A stretch of DNA of 64,000 nt, from NCBI GenBank assembly GCA_963807605.1, contig CAWECG010000001.1, positions 416,001 to 480,000 on the forward strand. Direction: 5' to 3'. Origin of the DNA: Candidatus Bathyarchaeota archaeon. Its GTDB lineage: Archaea; Thermoproteota; Bathyarchaeia; 40CM-2-53-6; RBG-13-38-9. Under the pieces are notes generated by a model. It was given only the letters and a program-made list of their open reading frames with translations, ran no database searches and was not told where the DNA came from. Made by a program: the position numbers and the translations under genes. This document shows positions 12,654-45,018 of the stretch, piece by piece. Every line of letters begins with the position of its first letter. Positions within the stretch are counted from its first letter, which is position 1.

Positions 12654-15317
12654 CTACTTGATTGGAAGCGATACCGTGAAGGTTGAACCCTTACCAATAG
12701 TACTTTCAACCAGTATTGAGCCTCCATGCGCCTCTATAATTCGCTTGCAGATCGGTAAACCGAATCCCATACCCCTCGCCTTGGTCGTAAAGAGCGGTAC
12801 CCAGAGCTTCTCCATAACCTCCTGGGTCATACCTTTACCAGTGTCAGCGAAGGCGACTCGCAAATTGCCTTCTGATGCTTGGCTCATGATTGCGAGTTTG
12901 CCCCCTCCAGGCATAGCGTCTATAGCGTTCTTGATGAGGTTCACGTAGACTCGCCTCAACTTCGCTGCGTCAACCCTCACCTTCGGTTCGTCCCCGGTCA
13001 AGTTTGATATTTGGATATTCTCTGGGACTCTTAATGAAGCTAATGCATCCTCGATCAGCGATCTCTGGTCAATCACTGTCAGTTCCAGCCGCACCTCCCC
13101 TGAATAATCTAGGAGGTCGCCGACTATCTTGTTCGCATAGGCGACATCCTTCTCTATTATCTCCAACATCGTCCTGACCTTTTCGTCAGTCGATGTCCTC
13201 AGCCCTACCTTCAGTACATACGCGGCGGCAAGGATTCCCTGAAGAGGATTGCGTAGGTCGTGACCAACCATCCCTGCTAATTCTCCAATAGCAGCCATCC
13301 TCTCTGACTTGAGAAGCAGAGCCTGAATACGTTTGTGCTCAGTTACATCGTGCGCGACACCTTGGACTGCTGGCCTGCCTAGATAGTTTATAGGGATCTC
13401 TACGACCTCGACATCGATGGGTGCACCATCTAGGCGCAGGAACTTCTCTTCAAATACAGGTGCCGATCTTCCTTCTTCAATTGCACGTTGCATCTTCTCC
13501 GTGAAACTCTCCCGATACTCTGGGTGAATAATATCTGTCACAGACCTTCCGATGATCTCTTCAGGATTTGTTGCTCCCAGAAGTCTAGCTCCTGTAGGGT
13601 TCATGTAGACAATTTTGCCTTCGCAGTGGACAAAGATGATATCCGGGGCGTGCTCCAAGAGTCGTCGGTAACGTTCCTCACTCACTGCCAAGTCTCTACT
13701 CTTCGCCCTAACGAGATCCTCCAGGTGATCTGATTGTCTTCTAAGCTCCTCCTCCAGTCTCTTTCGCTCGGTTATGTCACGAAGACTAACTACTCTTCCA
13801 ACTATTCTTCCTCCGATCCTTTGAGGTCTGGAGTATCTTTCGAAGACCCGGCCATCCTTGAATTCAAGCGTGTCTAAGAGCTCTATGTCCGGCTTAGCGA
13901 ATAGTTCTCCGGTACTTCTCACAAAATGCTCTGGGGCTTTCAGCTGGTCCTGAATAAAAGTAATCAACTTTCGGTCATCACGCGTTGTCAATATTGTCTC
14001 TGGAACGCGAACCATGTCCACATATCTTTGGTTATAATCTGTTACCCATTTCTCTGAGTCAACCACGAGGATGCCGTCAGCAGTAGATTCAAGGGTTGCA
14101 CGTAATACAGAAAGGGAACCTTCGAGCTCCTGCTCCATTCGCTTGCGCTCAGTAATGTCGCGGAAGCTGACTACTCTTCCAACAGTTCTTCCTTCTATCC
14201 GACTGGGTCGAGAATACCGCTCGAAAATTCTTCCATCTTTAAACTCTACCAGATCAAAGCTTTCAACATCGGGATGAGAAAATGATTCTTTAATTCTTCT
14301 GTAGACGATCTCGGGATCTTTGGCCTGCTCCTGCAGAAATGCAACGACTTTGCTGTCATCCCTGGACTCCAAGATATGCTTGGGAATGCTCGTTATCTCA
14401 ACAAATCTTTGATTATAGTTGGTTATCTTTTCTTCATTGTCGACTGTGAGGATTCCGTCAGCGGTCGAGTCTAGGGTCGCACGCAATACAGAAAGAGAGT
14501 TCGAAAGCTCTTGCTCAATCCGTTTGCGCTCGGTGATATCAACCCAAATTGAAAGGTAGTACCTAAGCGTCCCGTTACTCGTAATCGGAGTAGCGCTAAC
14601 TTCTATCCAGAAATCCTTTCCTTTCTTCGTTTGGAAGCATTCCTCATGTCGGGTAGCTCCTTGACGCATATACTCTTCGAGACGTTTACTAATCTCATCT
14701 TTCAGTTCCTTCGGCCACCATGGGTAGGGAGCTTTCCTACCAAGGATTTCTGATGAAGAATAACCTGTCAATAATTCAAGGGCCGGATTCACATAACGTA
14801 TTGATGTATCCTTGTTAGCGACGAGTATTGGGTTCGGGGAGTTGGCCAGCAGGCTGGAGCTGAACTCCTGACTTTCTCGCAGTCTCTCCTTGGCGCGTCC
14901 TTCTTCTGTGACATCTCTTGAAACAAGTATTATGCCCCTTTTGCCATCTAATGTCTTAATAGGTTTGGCTCGGATGTGAGTGACCCTTCCAGTGGACTCA
15001 GCAAGGCGGGTGTCTTCGAAGGAGTCTGCTCCCTTCTCCAGTATTTCATGTACTTCGCAAGGTACCCCCGTATGATAGCACGGACTGTCTAAGTCTCTTA
15101 GAATTTTATGGCATTTCTTTCCCAACATATTTCCATAGACATTCTTTGCGGATTCATTGATGAATCGACAAATGTAGTCTTCATCGATGACTACTACGCT
15201 GTCTGACATGTTGGAAAGGATGTTGTCTAGGAAAGGCGAGGTCTCGACTGGTCTGCGGAATTCCCGCTCAAAGATATCCTGTGTCTCTTTTTCCTTTGAT
15301 CTTCGAGCCTTTTTCAA
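12654..15317 (-). CDS. Cytoplasmic multi-PAS sensor histidine kinase
   Basis: Five PAS/PAC segments (each ending DVTE/DITE), HisKA GHDLRNPL, HATPase NLIKNA/DTGKG/GMGFGL. Confidence 0.95.
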   Translation of the reverse strand: MKKARRSKEKETQDIFEREFRRPVETSPFLDNILSNMSDSVVVIDEDYICRFINESAKNVYGNMLGKKCHKILRDLDSPCYHTGVPCEVHEILEKGADSFEDTRLAESTGRVTHIRAKPIKTLDGKRGIILVSRDVTEEGRAKERLRESQEFSSSLLANSPNPILVANKDTSIRYVNPALELLTGYSSSEILGRKAPYPWWPKELKDEISKRLEEYMRQGATRHEECFQTKKGKDFWIEVSATPITSNGTLRYYLSIWVDITERKRIEQELSNSLSVLRATLDSTADGILTVDNEEKITNYNQRFVEITSIPKHILESRDDSKVVAFLQEQAKDPEIVYRRIKESFSHPDVESFDLVEFKDGRIFERYSRPSRIEGRTVGRVVSFRDITERKRMEQELEGSLSVLRATLESTADGILVVDSEKWVTDYNQRYVDMVRVPETILTTRDDRKLITFIQDQLKAPEHFVRSTGELFAKPDIELLDTLEFKDGRVFERYSRPQRIGGRIVGRVVSLRDITERKRLEEELRRQSDHLEDLVRAKSRDLAVSEERYRRLLEHAPDIIFVHCEGKIVYMNPTGARLLGATNPEEIIGRSVTDIIHPEYRESFTEKMQRAIEEGRSAPVFEEKFLRLDGAPIDVEVVEIPINYLGRPAVQGVAHDVTEHKRIQALLLKSERMAAIGELAGMVGHDLRNPLQGILAAAYVLKVGLRTSTDEKVRTMLEIIEKDVAYANKIVGDLLDYSGEVRLELTVIDQRSLIEDALASLRVPENIQISNLTGDEPKVRVDAAKLRRVYVNLIKNAIDAMPGGGKLAIMSQASEGNLRVAFADTGKGMTQEVMEKLWVPLFTTKARGMGFGLPICKRIIEAHGGSILVESTIGKGSTFTVSLPIK

Positions 15318-22214: not shown

Positions 22215-23014
22215 TTAGAGGACATCCAGAAAGAATAGTTGTTTCGCTTTTCTGAGTCTTATATTCTCACCGAAGACAGAGATCATATTCTTTGTAGTCA
22301 AAATAGCATCTTTTCTTCCTGAGAAAATTACACGTCCATTCTTGAGGCCGAGTAGGTGAGTAATTTCCGGGAAGGTCTCTTCAATATGGTGTGTTACGAA
22401 AAGCACGCAGATATTCGATTCTTTCTTAATTAGAAGACGCAATGAATCAAGGTATCTCTTCCTTGCAACAGGATCAAGACCAGCACACACCTCATCCAGG
22501 ATCAACAGACGCGGCTTTTGGATCATTGCACGTGCAATCAAAGCCTTCTTCTTCTCACCAACTGAGAGGGTGGCGAATGATTGCTCCTCATGCTTCTGCA
22601 AGCCCATAAGCTTCAGAAGCATTCGTGCCCGTCGAAACGACGTGTCTTAGGAGGATCATAGAATAATCGTAGAGCCCCAAAATACCCCGAAGCAACCACA
22701 TCCAATACTGATTGGTCCTGTGGGAGCTCCTGTTCAGGCGCAGAACTAACCCAACTTATTCTTTTGCGTAGTCGTTGCAACTCTATCTTCTCAAACTCAC
22801 TTCCCAAGACTTCGATCCTGCCACGCGTAGGCCAGAGGTAGGTTGCAATCATTTTTAGTAGGGTCTTTCCTGCGCCATTTTGGCCGATGATCGCCCAGTG
22901 TTCTCCTGTACGTACTTCCCAGTCGATATGGTCGAGGATGCGGACTCCTTCACGTTCAAACGAAACATTATGCAAAGCGATTATTGGTGTTTCCAATTTA
23001 GCACCAAGAGGCAT
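22215..23014 (-). pseudogene. ModF-like ABC ATPase, frameshifted
   Basis: Walker A GQNGAGKT in ORF 22613-23014; signature, Walker B LILDE and VTHH in ORF 22215-22622; frame break near 22620-22650. Confidence 0.85.
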
Positions 23015-23330
23015 TTCTGTTACACATTATTTCAGGCAATAAGTAAGTCGGGCATCTATCTTCAGCACTATCTCTTGCTAAGAGCACCCAGAATTGAACT
23101 ATTAGATTGTGATTTTTACGCGCGCGCTGACCGACACATGGATTATTGTCCCCACTGTAACAGGTATCAATGGCATCATGTCTAGGACAATAAAGCTCAC
23201 GCTAATAGGTCCAACCTTGCCCACAATGGGAGCAAATTAGATGGACCGCCAAATCAGAAACCTTAACGCATCTCAGTGTACTAACACGCGCTCACTTCGA
23301 ACCTCTGCTATCGACACGAGTCTTTCAAAA

Positions 23331-24973: not shown

Positions 24974-25176
24974 TTTGAGCTAGCGCGCGCCAGCTTCTTG
25001 ATAAACTCTTTCGTTTGACATGAAGATGTATACGAGCTCTCCATGCTATGAAGATACGGAAAGACGAGTATTAAAAGCCATTTTTAGCCATTTTTGCAAG
25101 AGACCCGCGCGCTAGCTGCGTGTCCAAACAGAGTTATCTATGAAGGATCATAAATTATGTAAGAGTGTTCGTTACA

Positions 25177-26970
25177 ATGAGTGTTGAATCTAATGACCTG
25201 ACTGTCAGGGATCCCATCTGTGGCATGGTAGTCGATCCCAAGAAAACAGAATTCAAAGCCACGGTTAGAGGCAGACAGCACTATTTTTGCAGCGAATATT
25301 GCATGCGAAGTTTTCTCGAAGGACCTGAGATCGCATACTTCTCCATGGAAATCGGCATAAGAAGCGAGATCCCGACATATAGTGGCGGATTGGGCGTCCT
25401 AGCAGGAGACACCGTGCGCTCCAGCGCAGATTTGAGGATTCCACTTGTAGCTATTACACTCGTCAGCCGCAAAGGATACTTAAAGCAGAAAATAACGCAG
25501 ATGGGAGAACAGCTCGAGTATCCAGACGAATGGAACCCGTCAGATTTCATGAAACTAGAGCCAACAACCACAAAAGTGAAAATTGAAGGCAGAGACGTAG
25601 AGATTGGAGCTTGGATCTACAGTTATCAAAGTCTCACTAAGAGTGTTGTACCAATACTGTTTCTTGACACCGATCTTCCTAGCAATACGCAGGAGGACAG
25701 AGACATCACCAGTTTTCTCTACGGAGGCGACGAAAGGTACAGATTGAAACAAGAGATCGTTCTAGGAATTGGAGGCGCAAGGATCCTTGAAGTACTAGGT
25801 TTCAACATCAGAAAGTATCATATGAATGAAGGCCACTCAAGCCTTCTCATTCTCGAGTTACTGAAAAGGAACGAAATGGACCCCAACAAGGTCCGAGACC
25901 TCTGTGTCTTCACTACACATACTCCTGTTGCTGCTGCATTTGACAAATTCTCTTACGATCTCATCCAAGAATTGGTGGGCGACTATGTTCCGCTGGAGAT
26001 TGTGAAGAAATATGGTGGACAGGATGCGTTGAATATGACGCTCTTGGCAATAAATCTGAGTAAACACATCAACGGCGTGACGACGGCACACATGCAGTAT
26101 TCTGAAAAACTCTTTCCTGGACATCATATGAGGGCAGTAACCAACGGTGTGCATTCGTACACTTGGACTTGCCAGTATTTCAGGGACCTCTTCAACAAGC
26201 ATATCCCTGGCTGGGCTATTGAACCAGACCTGCTCGTCCGGGTAGACGAGATCCCGAGCGAAGACGTGTGGGACGCCCATATGAAAGCTAAGAACGATCT
26301 AATTGATTTCATAAAAGAGAGAACAAACATCAAGATGGATCCCGACGCCCTGACAATAGGCTTCGCCAGAAGGGCTACAGCTTACAAGAGATCCAACCTG
26401 ATCTTCTCAGACTTAGAAAAATTGAGAAGGGCAAATAAGACTGGACCCTTGCAACTGGTTCTCGCTGGAAAATCGCATCCACTAGACTACTCTGGCAAGA
26501 GCATAATCAGAGAGATCTATGATGACATATCTCGGTTGAGGGATGAGATGAAGATTGTTTATCTTGAAGATTATAACATGGCGATGGCCGCAAAATTGAC
26601 TTCTGGTTCAGATGTCTGGCTGAACACGCCCTTGCCACCGTTTGAGGCATCTGGAACAAGTGGAATGAAGGCTGCACACAACGGTGTCCCAAACTTCAGC
26701 GTTTTAGATGGATGGTGGGTAGAGGGTTGCATAGAGGGAGTTACAGGCTGGTCGATAGGCTCCCCATATGATATGCCCATCAGCGAGGATGAAAGGAGGA
26801 GCTTGGAGTTGGAAGATCTCTATGACAAACTGAGGTACCTCGTCATCCCTACCTTCTACAAGAAAAGAGACCAATGGGTAGCCATAATGAAGAGCTCTAT
26901 AGGAAAAGTAGCATACTACTTTAACAGTCACCGGATGATGAGGAGATACATTACAGAAGCCTATCTATAG
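25177..26970 (+). CDS. glgP: Alpha-glucan (glycogen) phosphorylase with N-terminal YHS/TRASH domain
   Basis: DPICGM...YFCSEYC, then AYFSMEIG, YSGGLG, HMNEGH, FARRATAYKR, EASGTSGMKA (PLP Lys). Confidence 0.95.
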   Translation: MSVESNDLTVRDPICGMVVDPKKTEFKATVRGRQHYFCSEYCMRSFLEGPEIAYFSMEIGIRSEIPTYSGGLGVLAGDTVRSSADLRIPLVAITLVSRKGYLKQKITQMGEQLEYPDEWNPSDFMKLEPTTTKVKIEGRDVEIGAWIYSYQSLTKSVVPILFLDTDLPSNTQEDRDITSFLYGGDERYRLKQEIVLGIGGARILEVLGFNIRKYHMNEGHSSLLILELLKRNEMDPNKVRDLCVFTTHTPVAAAFDKFSYDLIQELVGDYVPLEIVKKYGGQDALNMTLLAINLSKHINGVTTAHMQYSEKLFPGHHMRAVTNGVHSYTWTCQYFRDLFNKHIPGWAIEPDLLVRVDEIPSEDVWDAHMKAKNDLIDFIKERTNIKMDPDALTIGFARRATAYKRSNLIFSDLEKLRRANKTGPLQLVLAGKSHPLDYSGKSIIREIYDDISRLRDEMKIVYLEDYNMAMAAKLTSGSDVWLNTPLPPFEASGTSGMKAAHNGVPNFSVLDGWWVEGCIEGVTGWSIGSPYDMPISEDERRSLELEDLYDKLRYLVIPTFYKKRDQWVAIMKSSIGKVAYYFNSHRMMRRYITEAYL

Positions 26971-31706: not shown

Positions 31707-33848
31707 ATGCTAAGGAAAAGGATAGGCTGTGCCTTACTGCAAGAGGTTACTCTATTGAAAGCCCAAGATGTTAGATTCTCGAGTCCTGCAAGAGAAGATA
31801 GTGATTGGGATTATGCTAGAAACAAACGGGTTTTCTTAAGAAAGGGATTGCTTGAGTGGAGCTGCTCAGTCTTCTCTTCATCAGTTAAGCTCTGGGACAT
31901 GAGTCTTGTTGGCCCCAACAGAGACTCCCCATATGAGGGACTAACCTACTGCCTGAATCAAACTTCGTATAGGTTTCTTGACGGTCTGCTATTTTCCCGC
32001 ATAAATGAGAATCTAGTGCCGGTGCAAGTTGAGGTCTTCCCGAATAAAGCGCGTTACGTCTACAGCTCATCAGGTGGGCTGTTTAAAGCCGAATTAAACA
32101 CGACCGACATCAAAGATCTCGGGCCCGTCCTAATTCTGTCAGTGAACAGAAAATGCACCTTAGCACCGTTAGTAGACATCAGAGGCGTCTATGAAAAAAC
32201 CAATTTGAATGACATAATTGTCGACTATCAGAAAGACTACACCGAAATCAGAGGCAAAGAAACTTCACTGATAATGTTCGGCTTGCAGAATTTTGAGAAA
32301 GCAACGACAACTCTCAGTTGGCACTACAAATATGATGATGGGTTCAGAAAGAAAGAGAATGGGTTAATCTCGTTCAAAGGCGCTGACAGGGAAGTCTTAG
32401 CAGCCGGTTACGGCATTGCCGATCAACATGTGCTCATCAAACCCTGCGAGAAAGGAGCAGAACAAGAGACTGCCAAGACTCTTTCGAAAGTTGAACCTTC
32501 ATCGTTGATAGAGAAAGAAGAAGAGAGATTAGACAGGATATTAGATTCTGTAAGAATAGACACCGGAATAGAATTGACCGATGTAGCCTTGGCAGGCCGT
32601 ATTCTGACTTTAACTTCTTTCGGTCTTCCCGTGAATGGAAACGTAATTCCGGAAGCAGGAAGCTGGTGGTTTAGAAATTTGTGGGCACGAGATGCCCTTG
32701 AGGGAATCTTTTGGAATATAGAGACCTATGTGAAGATATTAGGAATGAAGGAATTTGTTAGGTCGACCTTGCGTTTTCTTCTGTCAACACTGAAATTAAG
32801 CAAAGCTGGCTTTTTGCCCGCTGTTATGACTCCTAACCCAGCAGGAGTGTCAGCAGACGGAACCATTCTACTTTTCTCTGCAATAGCAAAGTACAGCGAT
32901 GTTACTGGTGAAAAGGAGCTTTTCCTTGAAGCCAGAGAGATTCTAAGGAATCTCGCGGTTATCCTTCAGAATAACAGCGCAGACGTGGAGGGAGGACCTC
33001 CAGTTCTGGGAGAGAATTGTCTGTTGGCCTGTGCTCCAAATCAATCATGGACAGACAGCGTAAAACATGTCTCAGTAGGTTATGCTTCTTACCCTGGTTT
33101 TCCCTCAAGGATTCCAGACGAGTGGATAATCAAAGACATAGGGAGGATAGGGCCAGAAAAGGCTAGAGGAAGAGCCTTATCTCCAAAGTTCCTCCTTCCG
33201 GAGATCAACGCTCTTTGGATAAAAGTTTTGGAGAAATATGAAATCGAAAATCTGCTGCCAGATGCTGAAACGAATTTCCGTAAGATCTTCTGGAATGGCA
33301 ATTTCATAAACAACCTAGTCTCAATGGAAGGCGGGACGGATCCAACGGTCACCTCAATGGGAGTCGTGACTCTATCACTGCTTAAACACCTTTTCAATCA
33401 GAATGAGATCGACAGAGCTTGGAGTATAGTCAAAGAGAGACTCCTGATCCGCAGGCTTCCGGTGAGTTTCGGATCTTCACCTGTCCCATTCGGTATTCTT
33501 GTGAAGGATTCAGCGAAGAGGATCTACTTTGACGATGACGAGTATCATGAGGCTGTCGTTTGGCCCAGGGACATACCTTACCTGCTGGAGCTGGCTAAGA
33601 CAGCTGGTGAACCCGATCTAAGGAACTTACTTCTTAACGTTCTTGACGAGAGCCTATCCGAAGGCGCCTTGTTTTACACTGGCGAACTTTATTCTTTACC
33701 TGAAGGGGAAAATCCCAACCCGAACTCGCCTCTATCAGATAATCCCGTTCCAGTCAAGAACCAGATTCAATATTGGAGTCACTGGTGTGACCCCTTCTTA
33801 GACTTCAGCCTTTTAGCTCAGAAATACGATATTAATTCAAGAAAGTAA
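31707..33848 (+). CDS. Amylo-alpha-1,6-glucosidase / glycogen debranching enzyme (archaeal type)
   Basis: AGSWWFRNLWARD, SADG, SWTDS, EINALW, YHEAVVWP; the true start may be a little downstream. Confidence 0.8.
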   Translation: MLRKRIGCALLQEVTLLKAQDVRFSSPAREDSDWDYARNKRVFLRKGLLEWSCSVFSSSVKLWDMSLVGPNRDSPYEGLTYCLNQTSYRFLDGLLFSRINENLVPVQVEVFPNKARYVYSSSGGLFKAELNTTDIKDLGPVLILSVNRKCTLAPLVDIRGVYEKTNLNDIIVDYQKDYTEIRGKETSLIMFGLQNFEKATTTLSWHYKYDDGFRKKENGLISFKGADREVLAAGYGIADQHVLIKPCEKGAEQETAKTLSKVEPSSLIEKEEERLDRILDSVRIDTGIELTDVALAGRILTLTSFGLPVNGNVIPEAGSWWFRNLWARDALEGIFWNIETYVKILGMKEFVRSTLRFLLSTLKLSKAGFLPAVMTPNPAGVSADGTILLFSAIAKYSDVTGEKELFLEAREILRNLAVILQNNSADVEGGPPVLGENCLLACAPNQSWTDSVKHVSVGYASYPGFPSRIPDEWIIKDIGRIGPEKARGRALSPKFLLPEINALWIKVLEKYEIENLLPDAETNFRKIFWNGNFINNLVSMEGGTDPTVTSMGVVTLSLLKHLFNQNEIDRAWSIVKERLLIRRLPVSFGSSPVPFGILVKDSAKRIYFDDDEYHEAVVWPRDIPYLLELAKTAGEPDLRNLLLNVLDESLSEGALFYTGELYSLPEGENPNPNSPLSDNPVPVKNQIQYWSHWCDPFLDFSLLAQKYDINSRK

Positions 33849-33988: not shown

Positions 33989-34300
33989 TTATATTGCCCT
34001 AACTAACTCTCTTTTAGCTTCCTCTGGCGGCAGATTTTGCTCTCTAATACCTTTTATTGTTGCGGCTAGAGCTTCGTCTTTCAACATTTCTGATACCCAT
34101 TTCTCGAAGTCTCCCCTGTCGAGATGGAAAGCTATCGATTTACTGTCTACGGCCTTCAAGCATTCTTTGAACTCTTTTAGCGTAGAAGCTGATTTGTTAG
34201 CGGGCACGCCCACGTCCAGATAGAAATGGAACTCTCTACCCGGAGGAGCTCTGGCCACTTTGGCTATTTGAGTTCGTCTTCTACCTGCGGTTGTTGACAA
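33989..34300 (-). CDS. DUF5752-like small protein
   Basis: FHFY...LKEF...SIAFHLDRGDFEKWV..LKDE.LA; same domain as the GH57 C-terminus; GAGGTG SD before TTG. Confidence 0.8.
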   Translation of the reverse strand: MSTTAGRRRTQIAKVARAPPGREFHFYLDVGVPANKSASTLKEFKECLKAVDSKSIAFHLDRGDFEKWVSEMLKDEALAATIKGIREQNLPPEEAKRELVRAI

Positions 34301-34543
34301 GAAAATCACCTCGAATGAATCCTAAAATGTACTATGATATTCACGGAAGATAAAAGGGTGTAGGTGGGTCGACCAGATTTCGGAGTTGTTATGCATCAGT
34401 ACTGAGACAGACGAGAAATTCGTAAACCATCCCAGTCACGCGCTTCTTTTATCTCTATGCCTACTGATTCAGAACTAGAAAGTGTCCTTTCCATATTCAC
34501 ATGAAAATGATTTGCGGGATTATTCTAAGCTAATACCTTTTAG

Positions 34544-35878
34544 GTGCTTTCTCTGAAAGTCATAGATAATATCGATATAACAACAGTCAATTTGCTGTTG
34601 ATAGAATTGGCCACGGGTACCACGACCGATTATGACCCTGGATCCTTAGTGACAATAATTCCTATTGGCGGGGAGGCGAAACGTTTACTCCCACTCACAG
34701 CGGAGGTCGCCAAGCCGTGCATTAGGCTGCTAAACCGCCCCATTGTTGAGATGTCACTGTTATCCCTTACAAGTCAAGGAGTAAGAAACTTCATCTTTGG
34801 AGTTAAGGGCTATACCAACTACAGGAGTCTTTACGATTACTTCCAGTCAGGCGTTGACTTCTCAGCAAGATACAAGGTCGATCCACCTGTTCACATCAAG
34901 TATCAGCCCAACGTAGAAGACTGTGGAAGCGCTGACTCAGCCAGAATAAATATTGAATATTATGATATTGAAAAACCGATATTGATTATTCAAGGCGACA
35001 ATATTCTCGACGTTGACCTCAAAGATCTCCTGACTTTTCACCAAGCTAGAAGAGCCTACATGACGATTGGACTTGTACCCGTAACCGACGTTACAGGATA
35101 CGGCATAGCCGATATCGATAAGGACATGAGGATATCAAGGTTTGTTGAGAAACCTAGTCCAAATGAGGCACCATCAAATCTAGCGAACGCGGGACTCTAC
35201 TTGATCTCTCCAAAGATCAGGAGGATCTTCAAAGAGAAGACGATTCAAGAGAAGATTCTAAACAAGCGGTTAGATTTTGGCTACGATCTGATACCCTACT
35301 TGGTAGATGCTGGGATACGTGTCTTTGGGTATGTCCTGAAGGGAACATGGTTTGATGTAGGAACGCCGGAAAGATATCTTGAGGCGATGAAGGCTATACT
35401 TCACGGTCAACTGAAAGCCTTGCAGGACTTCGGCAGTAAGACATCTGAGAATCCTGCTGTGTGGATCCAGGGGGAGAGTATCGAATCCATTCGCACTAGG
35501 GAAGAGATAATGCAGAAGATCACTAGAGGCAAGATCAAGGTTGAAGGTCCCGTCCTTATAGGTAGACACTGCAGGATATCTGACGGAGCTAGAATAGTCG
35601 AATCGTGCATTGACAACTATTCACAGATCGGCAAGAATGTGATCGTAGAGAGATCAGCTGTGATGGACCGCGTAATAGTCGAAGACAACGCCGAGATACG
35701 TGAAAGCATCATAGGAAGACACTCAACCATCAAATCCTGCAGAGCCAAGCCTACAAAGATCCTCCAAACTTCAGTCTTGGCGGACGATGTTACAGTCGAA
35801 GCAGGATGTAACCTTGTAAGCGCAAGAATTTACCCACACAAGTACGTTTCCGAATTCGGCTACACCGACAAGAGATGA
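34544..35878 (+). CDS. Sugar-1-phosphate nucleotidyltransferase (NDP-glucose synthase candidate) with hexapeptide tail
   Basis: GGEAKRLLPLT...KP, QGDN, FVEKP, WFDVGTP, C-terminal beta-helix repeats; start possibly TTG ~34607. Confidence 0.9.
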   Translation: MLSLKVIDNIDITTVNLLLIELATGTTTDYDPGSLVTIIPIGGEAKRLLPLTAEVAKPCIRLLNRPIVEMSLLSLTSQGVRNFIFGVKGYTNYRSLYDYFQSGVDFSARYKVDPPVHIKYQPNVEDCGSADSARINIEYYDIEKPILIIQGDNILDVDLKDLLTFHQARRAYMTIGLVPVTDVTGYGIADIDKDMRISRFVEKPSPNEAPSNLANAGLYLISPKIRRIFKEKTIQEKILNKRLDFGYDLIPYLVDAGIRVFGYVLKGTWFDVGTPERYLEAMKAILHGQLKALQDFGSKTSENPAVWIQGESIESIRTREEIMQKITRGKIKVEGPVLIGRHCRISDGARIVESCIDNYSQIGKNVIVERSAVMDRVIVEDNAEIRESIIGRHSTIKSCRAKPTKILQTSVLADDVTVEAGCNLVSARIYPHKYVSEFGYTDKR

Positions 35879-35939: not shown

Positions 35940-37860
35940 TTGGCAGATGAAGCGAACATTATAGAAAATACGCCGGGAGACGAACTACGACAGCGAGTAA
36001 AGGAACTCTCATGCTTGTATGGAATTGAAAAACTAATCGAACCAGGAGCAGACATCGACAGGATTCTGAACGGGGTGACCTCTCTAATTCCTTCCGCTTG
36101 GCATCAAGCTGATATCGCGTGTGCTAGGATCGTCTACGCTGGGCAGAAATTCGAAACAGCCAACTTCAAGGAGACCTTGTGGAGACAGTCAGCAGATATC
36201 AAAATTCTCGGAAAGAAAGTTGGCGCCGTAGAGGTCTACTATCTGGAAGAGAAACCTGAATTTCATGAAGACCCATTCTTCAAAGAAGAAAGAAATCTGA
36301 TAAATACAATTGCAGGAAGACTCAGCAGATTTCTTGAACGCAAGCAACTAGAGAAGACATTATCGGAAACTAAAGAGTTGCTGGAGAAGGTCTTCTCTAG
36401 CATCGACATCATGATCGTCTACATGGATAGAGATTTCAACTTCATACGTGTGAATCGGGCCTACGCCGAGGCTAACAGACATGAACCCGAGTTCTTCGTT
36501 GGCAAGAACCACTTTGATCTCTATCCAAGCAAGGAGAATGAGGAGATATTCCGAAGGGTCGTTGAGACCGCCGAACCCTATTTCACCTACGCTAAACCGT
36601 TCAAGAACCCTCTACGGCCCGAGCTTGAGATAACCTATTGGGATTGGGGCCTCCAACCCGTGAAAGAAACCGACGGAAGAGTAAGCGGATTAGTCCTAAG
36701 TCTCATTGATGTAACTGAGCGCCAGCAGGCACAGGCAGAGCTTGAGCGTTACCACAAACACTTGGAAGAACTGACTGAAGAGCGAACTAGGGACCTGAAG
36801 CATAGCGAGGCCCGTTACCGCGGAATCGTCGAAGACCTGACCGAACTGGTCTGCCGTTTCTCACCCGACGGCAAACTCACCTTTGTCAATGACGTTTACT
36901 GTCTATACTTCGGCAAAAGACGCGAGGAACTGGTAGGGTACAGCTTCATACCTCTCATCCATCAAGAGGACCGTGAAAGAATAGAGAAACAGATCGCATC
37001 CCTTAGCCCGGAGAGACCTTTAGCTGAGATTGAAGAACGCATTATAATGCCCAGTGGGGAGATTCGCTGGCAAGAGTGGACCAACCGAGCCATTTTCGAC
37101 GATCAGATGCGCTTGATAGAGATACAGTCAGTAGGACGCGACATCACCGAACGCAAGAATCTAGCCGAAATAAAAAACCGATTCATATCAGCCGTCACCC
37201 ATGAACTCCGAACTCCCCTCGTCTCAATTGGCGGGTACTTGGATTACATCCTTATGGGAAAGAGGGGGGCGGTGCCAGAAAATATTCAAGAGAGCCTCAA
37301 AATTGTCAAACGAAACGCTGACATGCTCCTCAGGTTAACGAATGACCTTTTGGAGATTCAACGCATCGAGTCCGGAAAGTTCAGTCTGAAGTTGGAGACT
37401 CTCGATCTTAGGAAAGTTATAGATCGATGCGTTGAAGAGATTCACATTCCTATCGAGAAGAAAAATCAGAACTTTCATCTAAAGATTCCTGAGGGATCCA
37501 TGCCAGTTAAGGGGGACTGGGAGAGGCTGAGCCAAGCCCTAATGAACCTACTCTATAACGCCAACAAGTTCACACCCGAGGGGGGGAATATAGTTCTTCA
37601 GGTGGAAGAGGATGAAGCCACCTTCAGAGATCCAAGTCTCTGATACAGGGCTCGGTATTCGGAAAGAGAATCTAGAGACAGTCTTTGAACCCTTTGCCGA
37701 CATCGAGAAACCAGAATACTTTAGAGGAACAGGATTAGGCCTGAGCGTCACCAAGGGCCTGATTGAGGCTCACGGAGGCAGGATATGGGCTGATTCAGAA
37801 GGGGAAGGCAAAGGATCTACCTTTAGCTTCGAAATACCCAAATTAATGGGCGAGGGATAA
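35940..37860 (+). CDS. GAF-like/PAS/PAS histidine kinase (apparent +1 frameshift near 37625)
   Basis: RVKELSCLY N-terminus, two PAS, THELRTPL, NLLYNANKF; the G1/F/G2 boxes (DTGLG, GTGLGL) lie in ORF 37612-37860. Confidence 0.9.
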
Positions 37861-37867
37861 TTCTTTC

Positions 37868-39485
37868 TTGCCAGATAGAATTCTTGTAGTAGACGATGAA
37901 CCCGACATTCTCAATCTGGCCCAGATGATTCTTGAAGGATGGAGGATACGATGTCCTGGTAGCCTCCAATGGGGAGGAGGCCATCCAGAGGGCAGAAGTG
38001 GAGATGCCAGACCTTATCCTCTTGGATGTCGTGATGCCTGGCAAGAGCGGCCTCGAAGTCTGCAAGACCCTAAAGACAAGACTGAGGACTCGGCTCATCC
38101 CGATAGTCATCTTTACTGTTCTAGGTCGCGATGTTGACCGCAAGAATATCATCGATGCTGGGGCGGATGGCCACTTCACGAAGCCCTTTACGCCTGAAGG
38201 TCTTCTATCAGAGGTTAAAAGACACCTTGAGAAGGCCAGAGCATCAAGACCTGCAAAACCCCTAGAAATGGAAGTCAAGGATTTAGGACGTCACCATTTC
38301 AAGGTGGCTATGCTGGCTTGGGAATCACTCTACACTGTTCGTATTGGAGGCCTTGCCGTGGCTGCTACCAGGTTGGCAGAGGAATTAGCCGAGGCGGGTC
38401 ACGTAATCCACTTCTTCACAAGAAGAGCGCCTGGACAGCCCCAATATATGACGATAAACCATGTCAACTATTATACTTGCGTATCAGATCCCGGCAATAA
38501 CAGCTTGGAATTCGCTCGTAACATGTCCAAGGCATTGGTTGCGGGCGTCCATGAAGTTCAGAGATATGAGGGCAAGTTTGACGTAATTCATGGTCATGAC
38601 TGGCTTGTCGTCGACGCTTTACACGATCTCAAAAATGAGGGCTATCCAGTAGTCCTCACTTACCACTCGACTGAGTACGGGCGTCAAGGCGGGAGCTTTG
38701 GTGACTGGTGGGAGTTCAAGGAGATCTCAGGCAAAGAATGGTACGGAGGGTACATCGCGAACAGAGTTACCACAGTCTCCAATTATATGAAGAATGAGTT
38801 GAACTGGCTTTACAAGATCCCTCTTGACAAGATAGAAGTGATTCCAAACGCAATCGATCCAACCGGATACAAACTGAATCTTGATCCTGGTAAAATAAAA
38901 GAGAAGTACGACATTCATCCCTTGGCTCCAATGGTCGGGTTCATCGGCAGGCTAGAAAGTCAGAAGGGCCCTGACCTTCTGGTCGAAGCCATACCAAAAG
39001 TGCTCGCAAACAGATGGGATACCAAATTCATTTTCATAGGACAAGGCAGTATGCGGGGCTACTTGGAGAATAGAGCCAAGGAGCTGGGCATAGCAGACTC
39101 AGCCAGATTTCTGGATTTTGTGCCCTATTGGCATTTTCGAGAGCTTATCAACGCATGTGACATCATCTGTCTCCCCAGCAGGAACGAACCCTTTGGGATA
39201 GCCTTGTTGGAGGCTTGGGCAGCCGGGAAGCCAGTTGTAGCGGCTGACGTTGGTGGCTTACGCGAGAATATAGATAATTTTGTTAATGGAATAAAGGTCT
39301 ACACAACCCCAGAGTCCGTGGCTTGGGGTATAAACTACCTCCTCAACTCACCTGATGCAATGAAGAAACTGTCTGAGGAGGCATCAAAGAAAGTATTGGC
39401 CTTCAAGTGGGAGAATACGATCAACAAACTAGTCGATACCTATTCCCATGCAATTGGCACACAGCTCTCCGGCAAGGTTCCATAG
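37868..39485 (+). CDS. Receiver (REC)-GT4 glycosyltransferase (glycogen-synthase-like) fusion, apparent +1 frameshift near 37937
   Basis: MPDRILVVDDEP.. joins ..GYDVL..LILLDVVMP..FTV..KPF; the same frame continues into WESLYTVRIGGLA, HGHDW, IGRLESQKG, EPFGIALLEA. Confidence 0.9.
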
Positions 39486-39586
39486 TTCGTGGACTCTTTT
39501 GATAAGGCTTGAACCCGACTCTGGCGCTTATGTCCCCATTGTCCTAATTGCGAGCAAGTGCTAAAGAAACTGACTTTAGGATCTTC

Positions 39587-41125
39587 CTATATCAGGGCTC
39601 TCAATTCCGATACTCTTTGATTTACACGGTCATGGAGAGTCTTTCTGAGCTCCGCGGCATTTGACTTTCGGATGTTTTCTATTCGATTTGCGAGTTGGTC
39701 ATCTCCTATAACTTTACTGATCCATTTCTCAAAGTCTCCACGAGCGAAGTGATACTCAATAGATCTGTCAGAAGCGATCAAGATAGCTTCTTTGAACTCA
39801 TCCATTGAGTGTGCTGACAGGCTAATGTATTTGCCGTTCTCACGAAAGTGAAAAGCCTCGTCGGGTGGCACTATTCGGAGCACATATGCAGATGTTCTCT
39901 CCGGCTCAGCAAGGTTGTCAGCCACTTTCGCATAAAAGTCCGAAAGGATCCGGGTAAACGCCCAGAAAGCCTGCACAGGAGGTTGATTGCTGAAGTATCC
40001 GTGCACCAAACCTGAAGCCCCTGGCTCCGTGTACATATAGTAAAGATGATCGCTTATCTGCAATAGCCTCCATAATTTTAGAATCTTCTCGTTTCGAGTC
40101 TTCTTTACGTAAGGTTCCAGACACTTTAGAGCGCTGTAGCACGTCCTCTGCATATCGTTGCCAAACCAAGCGTTTGTACTTCGTTCAACATCTGCCCAAG
40201 AGACTGTATTGAAGTCGTTCACAGATACTACTCCCACCGGAGCATGTGAGGATACGAGTTCAGAGGGAGTCTTGAACTGGAGGTTGTTGTATTTCAGAAT
40301 CTCCCCTGGTATCCACTTAAGGAACTCAAGTATTCCTGTTTCGGGCCATTGATGCTCACCGAAAGTCTCGTAGTCGATGAACATGTTTATGCATTGGCCT
40401 GGTGTCGCCGATAGCCATGCGGCGTACTTGTCGGCGGTCAAAGGCCATCCAACCCAGTCTCTAGCGGAGAACCTGAAGGCTACATCATCTGAGAGTCTAT
40501 TGTTTCGCAAGAGAACCACTATGTCTGTTTGGTCTGCTTTATAGACATAGTCGGGCGACCTCCATCCAAGAATACGCTCAGCCCCTTCTGTAAATACTCC
40601 CTGATACCCCATACAATCCAGCGTCTTCGCGATAGAATTGTTGTAGATGAACTCCGTATTCTCGAATACTCGTGGAACATAACCGAAGAGCTCTTCCATG
40701 AGCTGCCTGTGAAGACGCACCTGTTCAATAAATTCCTCTCTATTTGCCGAGAATAGACTTGAAATCGAATGATAATATGTCTGGTCAAGGAACTCCACGC
40801 AACCGCTATCAGCCAATTGTTTGAATAGATCTAAAGCTTCTGGCGCCCAGCGTTCTAGCTGTTCAATTAAAACTCCTGAAATACTATAAGCTACCTTGAA
40901 TTTCTTCTTTTCTTTCTTGAATTTATCGATATTCTTTAAGACTATTTCGTTGGCAGGGATGTAACATTTCCTGGCAACTCTTTTCAGGATGTCTCTGTTC
41001 CATTCATTATCAAAGTAAATTTCAAAGAGCTCTTCGGCCTTTTTGCCCTTGCTCAGGTCTTCGTTGAAATCTTTGAGGATTCTGAAAGGTTGGTGGACTT
41101 CGAAACCAAAACAGACATCAGGCAT
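39587..41125 (-). CDS. GH57 alpha-amylase-like enzyme with C-terminal DUF5752-like domain
   Basis: EVHQP, TYYHS, ENTE (nucleophile), DYETFGEH (acid/base), SD region; C-terminal HFARGDFEKWI. Confidence 0.92.
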   Translation of the reverse strand: MPDVCFGFEVHQPFRILKDFNEDLSKGKKAEELFEIYFDNEWNRDILKRVARKCYIPANEIVLKNIDKFKKEKKKFKVAYSISGVLIEQLERWAPEALDLFKQLADSGCVEFLDQTYYHSISSLFSANREEFIEQVRLHRQLMEELFGYVPRVFENTEFIYNNSIAKTLDCMGYQGVFTEGAERILGWRSPDYVYKADQTDIVVLLRNNRLSDDVAFRFSARDWVGWPLTADKYAAWLSATPGQCINMFIDYETFGEHQWPETGILEFLKWIPGEILKYNNLQFKTPSELVSSHAPVGVVSVNDFNTVSWADVERSTNAWFGNDMQRTCYSALKCLEPYVKKTRNEKILKLWRLLQISDHLYYMYTEPGASGLVHGYFSNQPPVQAFWAFTRILSDFYAKVADNLAEPERTSAYVLRIVPPDEAFHFRENGKYISLSAHSMDEFKEAILIASDRSIEYHFARGDFEKWISKVIGDDQLANRIENIRKSNAAELRKTLHDRVNQRVSELRALI

Positions 41126-41300
41126 TCAATCACCATACTCCTCCATCAAAACGGCGGCACACGTAACAATTCATCTTGCCTGCTTAGAAACTTAGCTTAC
41201 AATTAACAACTAGGTGAAAATTCGCAAGAAATCCTGAACGGAGATGTCTTGAAGACGATTCTTCCTGAAGTTATGATTGAAATCGTCTTTCTTTAATCTC

Positions 41301-42545
41301 TTACCCGGAATTCTCACTTATTTCTCCATAACACCTTAGAGTCTGGTCTGCCGCCTTGTCCCAAGTGAAATACTTGAGGACTCTTTCCCTACCATTCTTT
41401 CCCCACTTTCTAGCAGTGTCTTTGTCGGACAGTACCGCCATAATTCCCCACGCGATATCTTGTGCGTTGTTGCCGTCCACATGTACACCACACTGGTCTT
41501 TTCCTGAAGGAACCACTTGTTCCCTGAAACCGACGACACCTCTAGCACCCACGACTGTCGGTTTTTCCATTGCCATTGCCTCAAGGCTCACTATGCCGAA
41601 GGGCTCATAGATCGAGGGGAAGACGCAGACGTCTGATGCCGCATAGTTAAGTATTCTCTCACTTTCGCTGACAAATTCGAACCTATATTGCACTTTATCT
41701 TCTATCCTTAGTCTTGAGGCAAGATCCATTATATCTCTCTGTTCTTCGCCTTTGCCCAAGATCAAGAGTTTCGAGTTTGGATATTTCTCCAATACAGTGG
41801 GCATGGCTTGAATCAGGTTCCTGACACCCTTAACCCAGGTCAAGCGCCCTATGAACAAGATTAGATTGTCATCGTCATTAACGCCATACTTAGCCCTCAA
41901 GGCCTTCACATCGTCGGCTCTGGAATTTTCAGGGTTGTACTTGTCAGGATCAACCCCGTTCCAAGCAACATGTATCTTCTCTTCAGGCCAACGGTGCCTA
42001 GCCAAATCTTCCTTCATGGCGTGGCTTACTGTAATCACGCCATCTGCTTCGTCAGCAGCCTTCTTCTCTAGGGCCGTGATAATATTAGAACCGTTTCCAC
42101 TTCTACCCCATTCGGTTGAGTGGACATGAAATACTGTGGGAATCCCGAGCTCATCTTTGCCGATTATGCTTGCTACGCTGTTAAGCCAGTCGTGAAAACA
42201 TATCAGATCGTACTTGTAACCTTGTTTCTTCACCAGGTCATTGACTAGTTTCGATATCGATAGCGTATTGTACATGAAGAAATCGCTAAAGAACTTGACG
42301 TGGGAACCCCAGCTCTCCAAATCTTTGGATAACAAAGGAAAGATCTTTGAGGCATCTGTCAGGATTGGTCTGTGAACTTCTACTCCTCTTAGAATCTCAT
42401 TAGTCGGTAAATCTCCGGTATTCATGGCGAAGACTGTAACGTCATGGTCTCGCTCCACATATTTCCTAGTTATATTCTCGGCATAGGTACCCAATCCGCC
42501 AACGACAAATGGAGGGTACTCCCATGCAAAGAACGCGATCCTCAT
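41301..42545 (-). CDS. GT4 glycosyltransferase (glycogen synthase candidate)
   Basis: WEYPP.VVGGLG, HDW, HSTEWGR, IGRL..VKG, YEPFGIVSLEA. Confidence 0.9.
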   Translation of the reverse strand: MRIAFFAWEYPPFVVGGLGTYAENITRKYVERDHDVTVFAMNTGDLPTNEILRGVEVHRPILTDASKIFPLLSKDLESWGSHVKFFSDFFMYNTLSISKLVNDLVKKQGYKYDLICFHDWLNSVASIIGKDELGIPTVFHVHSTEWGRSGNGSNIITALEKKAADEADGVITVSHAMKEDLARHRWPEEKIHVAWNGVDPDKYNPENSRADDVKALRAKYGVNDDDNLILFIGRLTWVKGVRNLIQAMPTVLEKYPNSKLLILGKGEEQRDIMDLASRLRIEDKVQYRFEFVSESERILNYAASDVCVFPSIYEPFGIVSLEAMAMEKPTVVGARGVVGFREQVVPSGKDQCGVHVDGNNAQDIAWGIMAVLSDKDTARKWGKNGRERVLKYFTWDKAADQTLRCYGEISENSG

Positions 42546-42695
42546 CCTTGAAACCTTTGAGCAGTATCAGAGATAGTGATGAAAAACCAGAGTCCATTTA
42601 AGACTTTTGTCAGTTTCCACGAGATATCGAATATAATTGAAAATCCAGTTCTTCCTTGAAAAAGTGCAAGTGACTTATACTGCTGGCAGACTTCC

Positions 42696-43115
42696 TTAAA
42701 GCGAGTGTTTATGACTGTTTAGAGACTTGCCACTCTTTTCCCCCAGAAATTTCTCTAATTCTGCAGAGACTTCGTCACCGCCTCCAACCTTTAAGCCACG
42801 GGCGACGTCGTAAAGTACGATTCGGTGCTGCAAATCCTCAGACTCCTCGATCTCACTAACAATCTCACCCGGTAGATTTTCAGACACGAAGATCATAAGT
42901 CTAGCATCCTCTACTTTCCAAAACTCTCTCTCCCGAATAGACATTCTCCCACTCCTAATCATTGATCGGAGAGTGTGTGGGCTCATGCTTCTGCTGCAAA
43001 TTATCATGTGATAGCCTTGATGATCTTTAACCCATTCGCCTTCCTCGCCGAGCTGCCAACCTTCTTTGCCTGCACAGAACTGCTTAAACTCCTTCGGTAT
43101 ACGAGAAAGGTTCAA
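42696..43115 (-). CDS. Hypothetical protein
   Basis: 139 aa ORF within the glycogen cluster; no recognised motif. Confidence 0.6.
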   Translation of the reverse strand: MNLSRIPKEFKQFCAGKEGWQLGEEGEWVKDHQGYHMIICSRSMSPHTLRSMIRSGRMSIREREFWKVEDARLMIFVSENLPGEIVSEIEESEDLQHRIVLYDVARGLKVGGGDEVSAELEKFLGEKSGKSLNSHKHSL

Positions 43116-43345
43116 GAAAGTCTACCATAAAAAAGTAAGTTGCGCACAGATAAACCTTCTTGGAGTGGTTGCAGCTTATGTCGAGTTCACGTGTCTATTC
43201 ATCGGTCTCGGCGCACAAAGACCTGCAATTCTACTAAGATACTTATCAGTTCCAATCAATCTCATTATATCATAGGAGCTGAGGACTTCCTCAGATTCCT
43301 CCACATTTGCAGCAAAATGTTTCGAAAAAATGGAGATACAACTGT

Positions 43346-44389
43346 TTGACAATCGTTTTTGAGAAATTGTTTCAGGAAGCAAGTCTGCGAAGCCCTCTCC
43401 AAGGCCTCAAGGAAGTCCATCAAAGGATTGAGATCAGAAAGGATCCCTTGACTGGAAGACGGTGCAGAATAAATATCGACAGATCCAGGAGGCCTAAGCA
43501 GGTTTCAACTGGAACTGATGAGCTGGCCCAATTTTTCAAGAGTTCGAGAGCGAAATGTTTCTTCTGTCCAGAGAACATTGAGAAGATGACGCCCACCTTT
43601 GTCGGAACACTTCCCGAAAGGATCAAGATGGGAGCGTCTTGGCTTTTTCCAAATCTGTTCCCATTCGCAGGATTCCATGCCGTTGCAGTTTTCTCAAGTG
43701 ATCATCATCTTGAGCTGAACAGATTTTCTCCGAAGCTAATTGGGAATTGCCTTAAGGCGTCATTGGAATATTTCAGACTGATTAAGGCTCAACATCCGGA
43801 GGCCAGGTATTGGAGTATTAATTGGAATTACATGCCTCCCGCTGCCGCCAGCATTGTTCATCCTCATCTTCAGGTGATAGCTGATCCCGATCCGAGCCAA
43901 AACACCCTCCAACTACTTGATGCAAGCAAATCCTACCATGATAAGCGCAGACGCAATTACTGGCGTGACCTCGCAGAAGTAGAGCAACAGAAAGGGGAGA
44001 GATTCATCGGAAGGATCGGCTCAGTGAGCTGGTTAGCCAGTTTTGCTCCACAAGGGAATCGTGAGGTCCAAGGAATATTCTCTAACATATCAAGCCTCGA
44101 TCAGTTAGGAGAGAAGGAACTGAACGAATTGTCCACTGGCCTATCCTTCATATTGAGAGGATACTATTCATGTGGAGTCAAGAGTCTCAATATGGCTACT
44201 TTCTCAGCACCCTGCGATGAGGATCTGAGCGATTTCTTTCTTCTGAATTTTAGACTTATATCGAGACCCTTCCCGGCTTGCCTTTATGTCAGCGACAACG
44301 GTTTCATGGAGACTCTTCATAGGGAACCGATCATCGAGACAATTCCTGAGGATCTTAGCATAGAGCTGAAGCGATCTTTTCTTGAATGA
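43346..44389 (+). CDS. GalT-like (HIT) hexose-1-phosphate nucleotidyltransferase
   Basis: EIRKDPLTG, CFFCP, PNLFP, ASIVHPHLQ; TTG start after GGAGA. Confidence 0.88.
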   Translation: MTIVFEKLFQEASLRSPLQGLKEVHQRIEIRKDPLTGRRCRINIDRSRRPKQVSTGTDELAQFFKSSRAKCFFCPENIEKMTPTFVGTLPERIKMGASWLFPNLFPFAGFHAVAVFSSDHHLELNRFSPKLIGNCLKASLEYFRLIKAQHPEARYWSINWNYMPPAAASIVHPHLQVIADPDPSQNTLQLLDASKSYHDKRRRNYWRDLAEVEQQKGERFIGRIGSVSWLASFAPQGNREVQGIFSNISSLDQLGEKELNELSTGLSFILRGYYSCGVKSLNMATFSAPCDEDLSDFFLLNFRLISRPFPACLYVSDNGFMETLHREPIIETIPEDLSIELKRSFLE

Positions 44390-44598
44390 AGATCGCCGAT
44401 AAAATCGGTAACCGTATTCTAACAGGGTGACGAAGCGATTTCGAGTGCGGTCGACCGACCTTGGGCGCGAATATCAAATATGTGCTTGGGTTGCTGAGCT
44501 GGTTTATCTCACGCGCGCGCGTTAATCGACAAGCTCAAAGAAGAGAAGCCAAAATGACTGGTTCTGAAACGCCACGTGTCAGATTCTAGAAGGATTGT

Positions 44599-45018
44599 TC
44601 ATTTAGGACGTCGTCGATTCTTCGGCTGCTTGAAAGGATTCTTCTCATCACTCTCCTTAAGGCGCCTTATCACTTCCGCCAGGAGATCTTCAGGCGTGAA
44701 GGGCTTGACGAAGTAACCGTCGCATCCACTCTCCTCGGCGAGCTTGTGGTCAACATCTCTGCCCAGAACGGTGAACATGACTACGGGGACGAATCTGGCA
44801 ATTGTTTCGGTCTTTAGGATCCTGCAAACTTCCAGACCGCTCATTCCAGGCATTACTATGTCAAGGAGCACAAGATCAGGATTCTCTTCCTCAGCTTTTT
44901 GGATGGCCTCTGCTCCATTGGATGCGGTGACGACATTGTATCCCTCTCGCTCTAAGATCATCTGAGCTAAACTGCGAATAGGCTCTTCGTCATCTACGAC
45001 GAGGATCTTAGCTGTCAA
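44599..45018 (-). CDS. Stand-alone response regulator receiver
   Basis: ILVVDDE, LLDIVMP, FT, KPF; close paralog of the REC fused to GT4. Confidence 0.93.
   Translation of the reverse strand: MTAKILVVDDEEPIRSLAQMILEREGYNVVTASNGAEAIQKAEEENPDLVLLDIVMPGMSGLEVCRILKTETIARFVPVVMFTVLGRDVDHKLAEESGCDGYFVKPFTPEDLLAEVIRRLKESDEKNPFKQPKNRRRPK

Follow-up and report, generated by a model that had tools for sequence, protein, structure and literature searches.

The present study describes a putative signalling switch on storage-sugar synthesis in an uncultured Bathyarchaeia archaeon. Within a window of 64 kb (the whole stretch of DNA analysed, positions 416001-480000 of contig C1 of genome G000, which comprises 2.65 Mb in 5 contigs), a PAS-domain histidine kinase is directly followed by a receiver (REC) domain fused to the N-terminus of a glycogen-synthase-like glycosyltransferase (GT). 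The conserved fusion, the upstream kinase and the glycogen-type GT together make direct control through an aspartyl phosphate the most economical reading of the locus, and on balance we favour the explanation as a whole, namely that a kinase-REC module controls the fused glycogen-synthase-like enzyme post-translationally. A preliminary description of this stretch, made from its letters, had pointed to such a system; all the parts it listed are present, although two frame breaks interrupt them and the GAF-like domain it saw in the kinase found no support. Its interpretation stands as far as the fusion, the kinase paired with it and a role in glycogen synthesis are concerned, but not with respect to a free receiver acting as a phosphate sink. 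The nearest protein matches to the window fit a Bathyarchaeia origin.

The fused protein is encoded on the forward strand. Its receiver (37868..38231; Pfam Response_reg, E 4e-19) begins with a TTG start at 37868 and is joined by a linker of about 22 residues (38232..38297) to a retaining, glycogen-synthase-like GT-B enzyme (38298..39485) matching the Pfam families Glyco_transf_4, Glycos_transf_1 and Glyco_transf_5. Response_reg and these GT families lie in one open frame, 37929-39482, and the first 20 receiver codons are read in a separate (third) frame from the TTG at 37868. Two metagenome contigs, which stem from the JGI samples 3300060291 and 3300062553, were used for comparison: L013, which is 94% identical to the window over 11.8 kb and served as the reference for insertions and deletions and for the ratio of nonsynonymous to synonymous substitution rates (dN/dS), and L014, a second contig carrying the fusion. 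A search of 5.8 billion proteins gave two intact fused proteins, P0001 (L013-type, 544 amino acids) and P0002 (527 amino acids), which are 97% and 77% identical to the REC-GT of the window and hold Response_reg and the GT domains in one frame. The contigs of both relatives show an NTP-transferase gene, an intact PAS kinase, the REC-GT and then a convergent gene of glycoside hydrolase family 57 (GH57). The receiver had been described as running into the GT without a stop; no stop separates them in the relatives, but a frame break lies inside the receiver of the window. That the fusion exists beyond this assembly is borne out by its retention in three independent sequences, those of the window, L013 and L014. 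Relative to L013, the dN/dS is 0.08 for the REC-GT (0.17 for its REC part and 0.057 for the GT domain), with 0.20 for the kinase and 0.08 to 0.31 for neighbouring genes; as judged from these alignments, the REC-GT and the kinase are under purifying selection. In the REC tree the fused receivers group together (support 95/89), which suggests that the fusion arose only once.

Both partners of the putative phosphorelay retain their characteristic residues. In the fused receiver the acidic pair, the phospho-acceptor Asp, the Thr and the Lys are all present, in agreement with the preliminary description: the codons for D15 and D16 lie within 37886-37906, that for the phospho-acceptor D59 at 38025-38027, that for T89 within 38109-38126 and that for K111 within 38178-38198, and the five residues are nearly invariant across an alignment of the REC subfamily. 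The fragment read from the window scores 69 bits against PF00072 (curated cut-off 30.2), a family also found in P0001 and P0002. The cytoplasmic kinase (35940..37860, forward strand) has the architecture PAS_4-PAS-HisKA-HATPase_c and is divided between two frames (35940-37628 and 37630-37860); Pfam places PAS_4, PAS and HisKA within 35940-37640 and HATPase_c within 37594-37857. All the boxes of a HisKA kinase are present over these two frames, namely the H box HELRTPL (37200-37220), the N box NLLYNANKF (37545-37571), the G1 box DTGLGI (37642-37659) and the G2 box GTGLGLS (37726-37746), and the intact L013 orthologue of 639 amino acids has all domains and boxes in one frame. Residues 1-150 of the kinase, where the GAF-like region had been placed, match no Pfam family, GAF included; these 150 residues are absent from the L014 kinase, and the L013 and L014 kinases are only 43% identical. 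The cognate kinase is located directly upstream of the fused receiver in the window, L013 and L014, with a spacer of 6-7 nucleotides or an overlap. In the window the stop TAA (37858-37860) and the TTG start at 37868 leave the gap of 7 nucleotides noticed before. In L014 a TTG start for the receiver lies 6 nucleotides after a double stop of the kinase, so that the fusion protein as called on that contig is slightly truncated at its N-terminus.

The REC-GT fusion is rare, and the copies found belong to one narrow Bathyarchaeia lineage. The 118 other matches among the top 120 listed are unfused proteins of about 388 amino acids from Bathyarchaeia, Hadarchaeales and similar groups, and a search with the receiver-linker part brought no further REC+GT protein among the top 120 matches listed. 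Of 1.84 billion representatives, the best 150 were also screened: none of those checked is a REC+GT4 fusion, the multi-stretch matches tested being tandem GT4 or multi-REC proteins; these searches could miss distant bacterial REC-GT4 architectures. Among 400 other Bathyarchaeia species genomes none has the fusion, and the GT orthologue is found in 6, always without a REC. Unfused GT orthologues begin directly after the linker position. In genomes G036, G030 and G021, which belong to other families of the order, a cluster of seven genes (NTP-transferase, GalT-like, p713, p139, a second glycosyltransferase GT4b, GH57 and the GT) is present without kinase or REC, which indicates that the kinase-plus-REC module was added to a pre-existing cluster. 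The glycogen cluster itself, tracked by its GH57 gene and GT orthologue, was not found in any of 15 further genomes from the same family (G001-G015), among them one of the same genus at 90% completeness, and three other families of the order have it. Such a scattered occurrence is suggestive of transfer or of repeated loss.

The fused GT is likely to be a glycogen-type synthase, an assignment to which motifs, structure, fused homologues and neighbourhood all point. Only GT-B families (PF00534, PF13439 and PF08323) match it, and no GT2 family does, PF13641 included. Its motifs comprise RIGGLA (38340-38357), HGHDW (38589-38603), GGYIANRVTTVS (38745-38780), GRLESQKG (38946-38969) and the E-x7-E motif NEPFGIALLE (39183-39212). 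The best solved relative by sequence is the glycogen synthase GlgA of Pyrococcus abyssi (PaGS; 2bis, E 1e-26), in which RIGGLA aligns with KVGGLA, GRLESQKG with GRFDRGQKG and NEPFGIALLE with FEPFGLVALE, and a strikingly similar GGYIA-x-VTTVS stretch is common to both proteins. The fused GT is like PaGS (2bis, 3fro, 3l01) in the motifs K/R-x-GGL, HxHDW, GGYIA-x-VTTVS, R-x-x-x-QKG and E-x7-E and in the GT-B fold, and unlike it in that the identity is about 27-28%, that PaGS has no receiver and that the GT of the window remains below the glgA cut-offs. In an AlphaFold2 model the GT domain reaches a predicted local distance difference test score (pLDDT) of about 97 and shows the two Rossmann domains of a GT-B fold; Foldseek matches it to MshA, PaGS, BshA and GlgM, the TM-scores to PaGS, MshA and BshA being 0.72-0.88 when normalised by target length. 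In homologues with 36-40% identity the GT domain is joined to CBM48, alpha-amylase and Alpha-amylase_C, which are the domains of GH13 branching enzymes, and this constitutes a Rosetta-stone link to branched alpha-glucan synthesis. Synthase-branching enzyme fusions of 900-2000 amino acids were seen in other organisms in P0256, P0274 and about 20 further matches. The neighbourhood agrees with the glycogen setting proposed in the preliminary description, since the GT lies beside GH57, a nucleoside diphosphate (NDP)-sugar synthase and GT4b, and near a phosphorylase and a phosphoglucomutase (PGM).

Several results weigh against this assignment and would suit a different retaining GT4 enzyme, such as a compatible-solute or glycoconjugate synthase or an enzyme of maltose-1-phosphate type, whose product the two-component system would then control. 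The fused GT scores 80.6 bits against TIGR02095 (glgA; cut-off 328.45) and 102.8 bits against TIGR02149 (cut-off 302.4), and reaches the cut-off of no curated NCBIfam family; its scores with the MshA and BshA models are equal or higher. By fold the GT is as near to MshA as to glycogen synthase, and Foldseek puts MshA first. Mycobacterial GlgM and the Corynebacterium-type GT4 glgA (TIGR02149, 6tvp), which are likewise GT-B alpha-glucan enzymes of family GT4, are among the structure and sequence matches, and the TIGR02149 model fits the unfused GT4b better than the fused GT (184 vs 103 bits, both below the cut-off), so that the glucan elongator may be either GT. We nevertheless regard a different GT4 activity as unlikely, in view of the PaGS match with its aligned diagnostic motifs, the homologues carrying branching-enzyme domains and the constant association of the GT with GH57 and the NDP-sugar synthase, here also near the glycogen phosphorylase and PGM.

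In this assembly both genes are broken. Relative to L013, one nucleotide is inserted in the kinase near 37629, in the word GAGATCC, and one in the REC-GT at 37929/30, where an extra T gives GATTC and L013 and L014 both read GATC. These two insertions are the only coding insertions or deletions across the 11.8 kb aligned between the window and L013. In this sequence, contrary to the preliminary description, the kinase and the REC-GT are thus each split over more than one open reading frame (ORF). Either the breaks are errors of sequencing or the two genes are genuine, recent pseudogenes, in which case the regulated synthase would be lost and any glucan synthesis would proceed through GT4b. In a frame-switch audit, ORFs of three related genomes were used as tblastn probes against G000, with a reverse test in the relatives. 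The audit gave 16 frame-switch sites in G000, or 19 with three further sites of the window. One of the words GATC, GAATC or GATTC lies within 8 nucleotides at 12 of these 19 sites, against 4 of the 17 frame switches in relatives (24%) and 22% of random windows; among the sites detected after the hypothesis had been formed, four of five have a GATC-type word (P ~0.01). All four frame breaks within the window are located at such words (12492, ~22640, 37629 and 37929), and G000 encodes three Dam-class (D12) methyltransferases (C1:2613-3275, C1:362094-362747 and C1:365869-366504). Two more frame-switch sites, aligned to a genome of the same genus, are too diverged for the original word to be read. 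We conclude that the insertions are probably systematic long-read base-calling errors at GATC-type, probably methylated, sites, in which case the organism would make both proteins intact.

Frame breaks also occur elsewhere in the genome. A second kinase-receiver pair of the window (receiver 12284-12614, kinase ~13101-13286, both on the reverse strand) has its receiver split between two frames, with the junction at ~12492, at the word gtagaatctgatctt. A frame break accounts for the missing start codon of this receiver more simply than near-cognate initiation would. An ABC-transporter ATPase (22218-23026, reverse strand) is read as two overlapping ORFs with the junction at 22634-22652, beside ggaggatca. 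Further examples of frame switches in G000 are located at C1:162622, C3:151749, C3:990300 and C4:305532.

An unusually frameshift-rich genome was also considered as a sign of error and was rejected, the rates in relatives being similar: the forward test gave 13 sites (177,000 aligned residues) and 4 sites (45,000), the reverse test 10 (166,000; G002/G005) and 7 (50,000; G001). That frame switches are no more frequent in G000 than in its relatives speaks for the pseudogenes, as assembly error is left undemonstrated by it, and the artefact argument thus rests on the motif association and not on the rate. Two breaks 300 nucleotides apart in linked genes would also fit relaxed selection after a first hit, and each of the two genes has its +1 insertion relative to L013 in a stretch with no other coding insertion or deletion. 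Nevertheless, the dN/dS values of 0.08 and 0.20 give no indication of relaxation, so that any real inactivation would be very recent. The location of all four breaks of the window at GATC-type words, the enrichment of these words specifically in this assembly and the reading of a conserved GATC as GATTC at 37929 argue in the same direction, and we consider true pseudogenes fairly unlikely.

A stand-alone receiver of 139 amino acids (44599..45018, reverse strand; Response_reg, E 1e-28), about 60% identical to the fused REC, had been taken for a phosphate sink or trans-regulator dedicated to the fused enzyme. The motifs said to link the two receivers are only partly genuine: FTVLGRDVD and KPFTPE are real, but LAQMILE is partly the product of a shifted frame, as the intact relative reads LAQMILKDGGY where the fused REC of the window gives LAQMILE. 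The shared motifs are typical of the whole Bathyarchaeia REC subfamily, whose members are 56-63% identical, and are not special to these two receivers; an identity of about 60% to the fused REC is also seen in many receivers of Bathyarchaeia response regulators of about 310 amino acids. In the REC tree the free receiver is sister to the REC at C1:405594-405941 of G000 (support 98/86) and not to the fused REC, and neither L014 nor the unfused clusters yielded a free REC. A dedicated role for it is therefore not upheld. A broader alternative is that the fused REC is itself a phosphate sink, a scaffold or a localisation module, the true output of the kinase being another receiver, for instance the free one. 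Only four REC domains are encoded in the genome, alongside three or four HisKA kinases, numbers small enough for a branched pathway to be plausible, and the free receiver belongs to the same cluster, at a distance of 5 kb. However, its kinship with a different REC and its absence from L014 and the unfused clusters tell against this alternative, and the retention of the fusion at 77% identity, together with the REC dN/dS of 0.17, suggests that the REC serves the attached enzyme; we therefore judge a sink or scaffold improbable.

As to the other genes of the glycogen-type cluster, the inventory of neighbours given in the preliminary description (NDP-sugar synthase, GH57, second GT4, GalT-like gene and free REC) is correct, the GalT likeness being weak. 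The same-strand run is opened, 61 nucleotides upstream of the kinase, by an NDP-sugar pyrophosphorylase (34544..35878, forward strand) with an NTP_transferase domain (E 7e-40) and a left-handed beta-helix (LbH); its matches to the NCBIfam models rmlA_long and glgC are all under the cut-off, and the NTP_transferase gene adjoins the cluster in L013, L014 and the further related loci compared (L055-L059). Convergent with the REC-GT is the GH57 enzyme (39587..41125, reverse strand; 512 amino acids; Glyco_hydro_57, E 1e-86), which is kept beside the GT in every related cluster and may be a branching enzyme or act on alpha-glucans in some other way; its sequence has no match in the PDB at E <= 0.001. 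GT4b, the second, unfused GT4 glycosyltransferase identified by Pfam (41301..42545, reverse strand), is about 30% identical to the fused GT, has TIGR02149 glgA_Coryne as its best NCBIfam match (184 bits, below the 302-bit cut-off) and is paired with the other GT in L014 and L055-L057. It is followed by p139, a conserved protein of 139 amino acids (42696..43115, reverse strand) with orthologues 43-88% identical in L013, L055 and L056 and no Pfam or NCBIfam match. A GalT-like (HIT-type) nucleotidyltransferase or phosphorylase of 360 amino acids (43307..44389, forward strand) shows a weak NCBIfam GalT match (E 2e-6) and has orthologues in L055-L057. Its best PDB match is the GalT-like protein 1z84 (E 4e-7), Arabidopsis At5g18200, which acts as an ADP-glucose phosphorylase, a relationship that hints at phosphorolytic interconversion of ADP-glucose and glucose-1-phosphate within the cluster.

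Upstream of the kinase and REC-GT pair lies p713, a conserved protein of 713 amino acids and of no known family (31707..33848, forward strand), which is found in every version of the glycogen cluster. Its orthologues in L014 and L055-L057 are 30-36% identical and show many invariant Trp, Arg and Asp residues, with invariant stretches such as WWFRKPW-x-RD and VVWPRD, and the pattern of its secondary structure passes from beta-rich in the N-terminal part to helical in the C-terminal part. Searches of Pfam, NCBIfam and the PDB gave no match to p713 and a word-index protein search gave one only. It could be a new family of glucan hydrolases or debranching enzymes, the AlphaFold2 model built from 6 sequences being too poor (pLDDT 45) to tell. 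The wider upstream neighbourhood comprises a PFK, a YHS-fused glycogen phosphorylase, an ACD subunit, a class II aldolase, the PGM and p713. The phosphorylase (25144-26970, forward strand; Phosphorylase, E 5e-30) bears an N-terminal YHS metal-binding domain (E 3e-9), and its gene is also present on L013. An ORF of about 103 amino acids, called on L013 and located at 33989-34309 of the window (reverse strand), resembles DUF5752 and is 38% identical to the C-terminal part of GH57 (residues ~404-498); it recurs in L057 and looks like a free-standing copy of the GH57 C-terminal domain.

On this basis we propose the following mechanism for the kinase-REC module. A two-gene module of a PAS-PAS kinase and a REC would have been inserted in one lineage directly before the GT-B enzyme of the cluster, and the receiver would have become fused to the N-terminus of this glycogen-synthase-like enzyme. 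The PAS domains of the kinase may sense an intracellular cue, upon which the kinase would autophosphorylate the His of HELRTPL and pass the phosphoryl group to D59 of the fused REC. The phosphorylated REC may then change its conformation or oligomeric state and so alter alpha-glucan chain synthesis by the attached GT; the effect could arise through relieved occlusion or an oligomeric change, as in CheB or PleD, and may be either activation or inhibition. The linker is predicted by the model to be flexible, with a pLDDT below 50 at model residues 136-145. In the AlphaFold2 model of the whole fusion the linker likewise remains below 50 and the REC reaches 51-85, so that no inter-domain geometry can be read from it, and a complex prediction pairing the REC alignment with the GT alignment gave no verdict and counts neither for nor against binding. 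The moderate confidence of the REC model, from which no domain interface can be derived, detracts from the proposal, as does the fact that phosphotransfer and an effect on GT activity are deduced from the architecture.

Switching of an enzyme by its own receiver has precedents. In the CheB methylesterase, in the diguanylate cyclases PleD and WspR and in RpfG, Asp phosphorylation switches catalysis via relieved inhibition or oligomerisation; the general trend is set out in PMC5847659. The REC-GT resembles these signalling enzymes in its REC-linker-enzyme layout and its cognate kinase, and differs from them in that its output is a central carbon-storage enzyme and its mechanism is a proposal. 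In textbook accounts prokaryotes regulate glycogen synthesis through ADP-glucose pyrophosphorylase and through transcription, whereas regulation of the synthase by covalent modification is a hallmark of eukaryotes; eukaryotic glycogen synthase (GT3) undergoes multisite Ser/Thr phosphorylation on the synthase itself. The proposed system is like GT3 in concept, as covalent phosphorylation would act at the synthase and not at the supply of NDP-glucose, but this is an analogy and not homology: the GT family is another one, Asp-phosphate on an appended domain stands in place of Ser/Thr-phosphate, and the kinases are different. Archaeal receivers mostly lack DNA-binding outputs, and response regulators fused to metabolic enzymes are known and typically lineage-restricted.

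A 2018 census of archaeal two-component systems describes a REC fused to a BcsA-like GT2 (MTH_548 type) in Methanobacteriaceae, which is the sole glycosyltransferase output in that census; REC-enzyme fusions are narrow in distribution there and no GT-B output is listed (Galperin et al. 2018, PMC5847659). Like REC-GT2 (MTH_548 type, PF13641), the present protein is an archaeal response regulator with a glycosyltransferase output, narrow in range and uncharacterised. Its output is a soluble GT-B enzyme (GT4/GT5-like) of storage-glucan type, whereas that of REC-GT2 is a membrane GT-A enzyme of cellulose-synthase type, and, set against the REC-GT2 regulators, it has an N-terminal REC and shares its operon with a cognate kinase. 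The accessible parts of a 2024 review of prokaryotic alpha-glucan enzymes make no mention of a receiver, a response regulator or a two-component system, and our literature search found nothing on a REC-glycosyltransferase or a REC-glycogen synthase. We advance with some reserve, as possible rather than probable, the stronger claim that a two-component system directly switches a prokaryotic glycogen synthase here by Asp phosphorylation of an N-terminal receiver; this would be the first synthase-level covalent phospho-control outside eukaryotes and a new class of archaeal response-regulator output, the GT-B storage-glucan synthase.

The REC-GT would represent a new instance of the enzyme-output response regulators, with a storage-glucan synthase as output, and not a new principle. 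With three soluble proteins it offers a compact system for testing how archaeal receivers act on their targets. The Bathyarchaeia are an abundant group for which we know of no culture-based study, and the system opens the question of which intracellular cue governs their carbon storage. If the proposal is true, a signalling pathway switches a storage-sugar enzyme directly in these archaea, at the level of the synthase.

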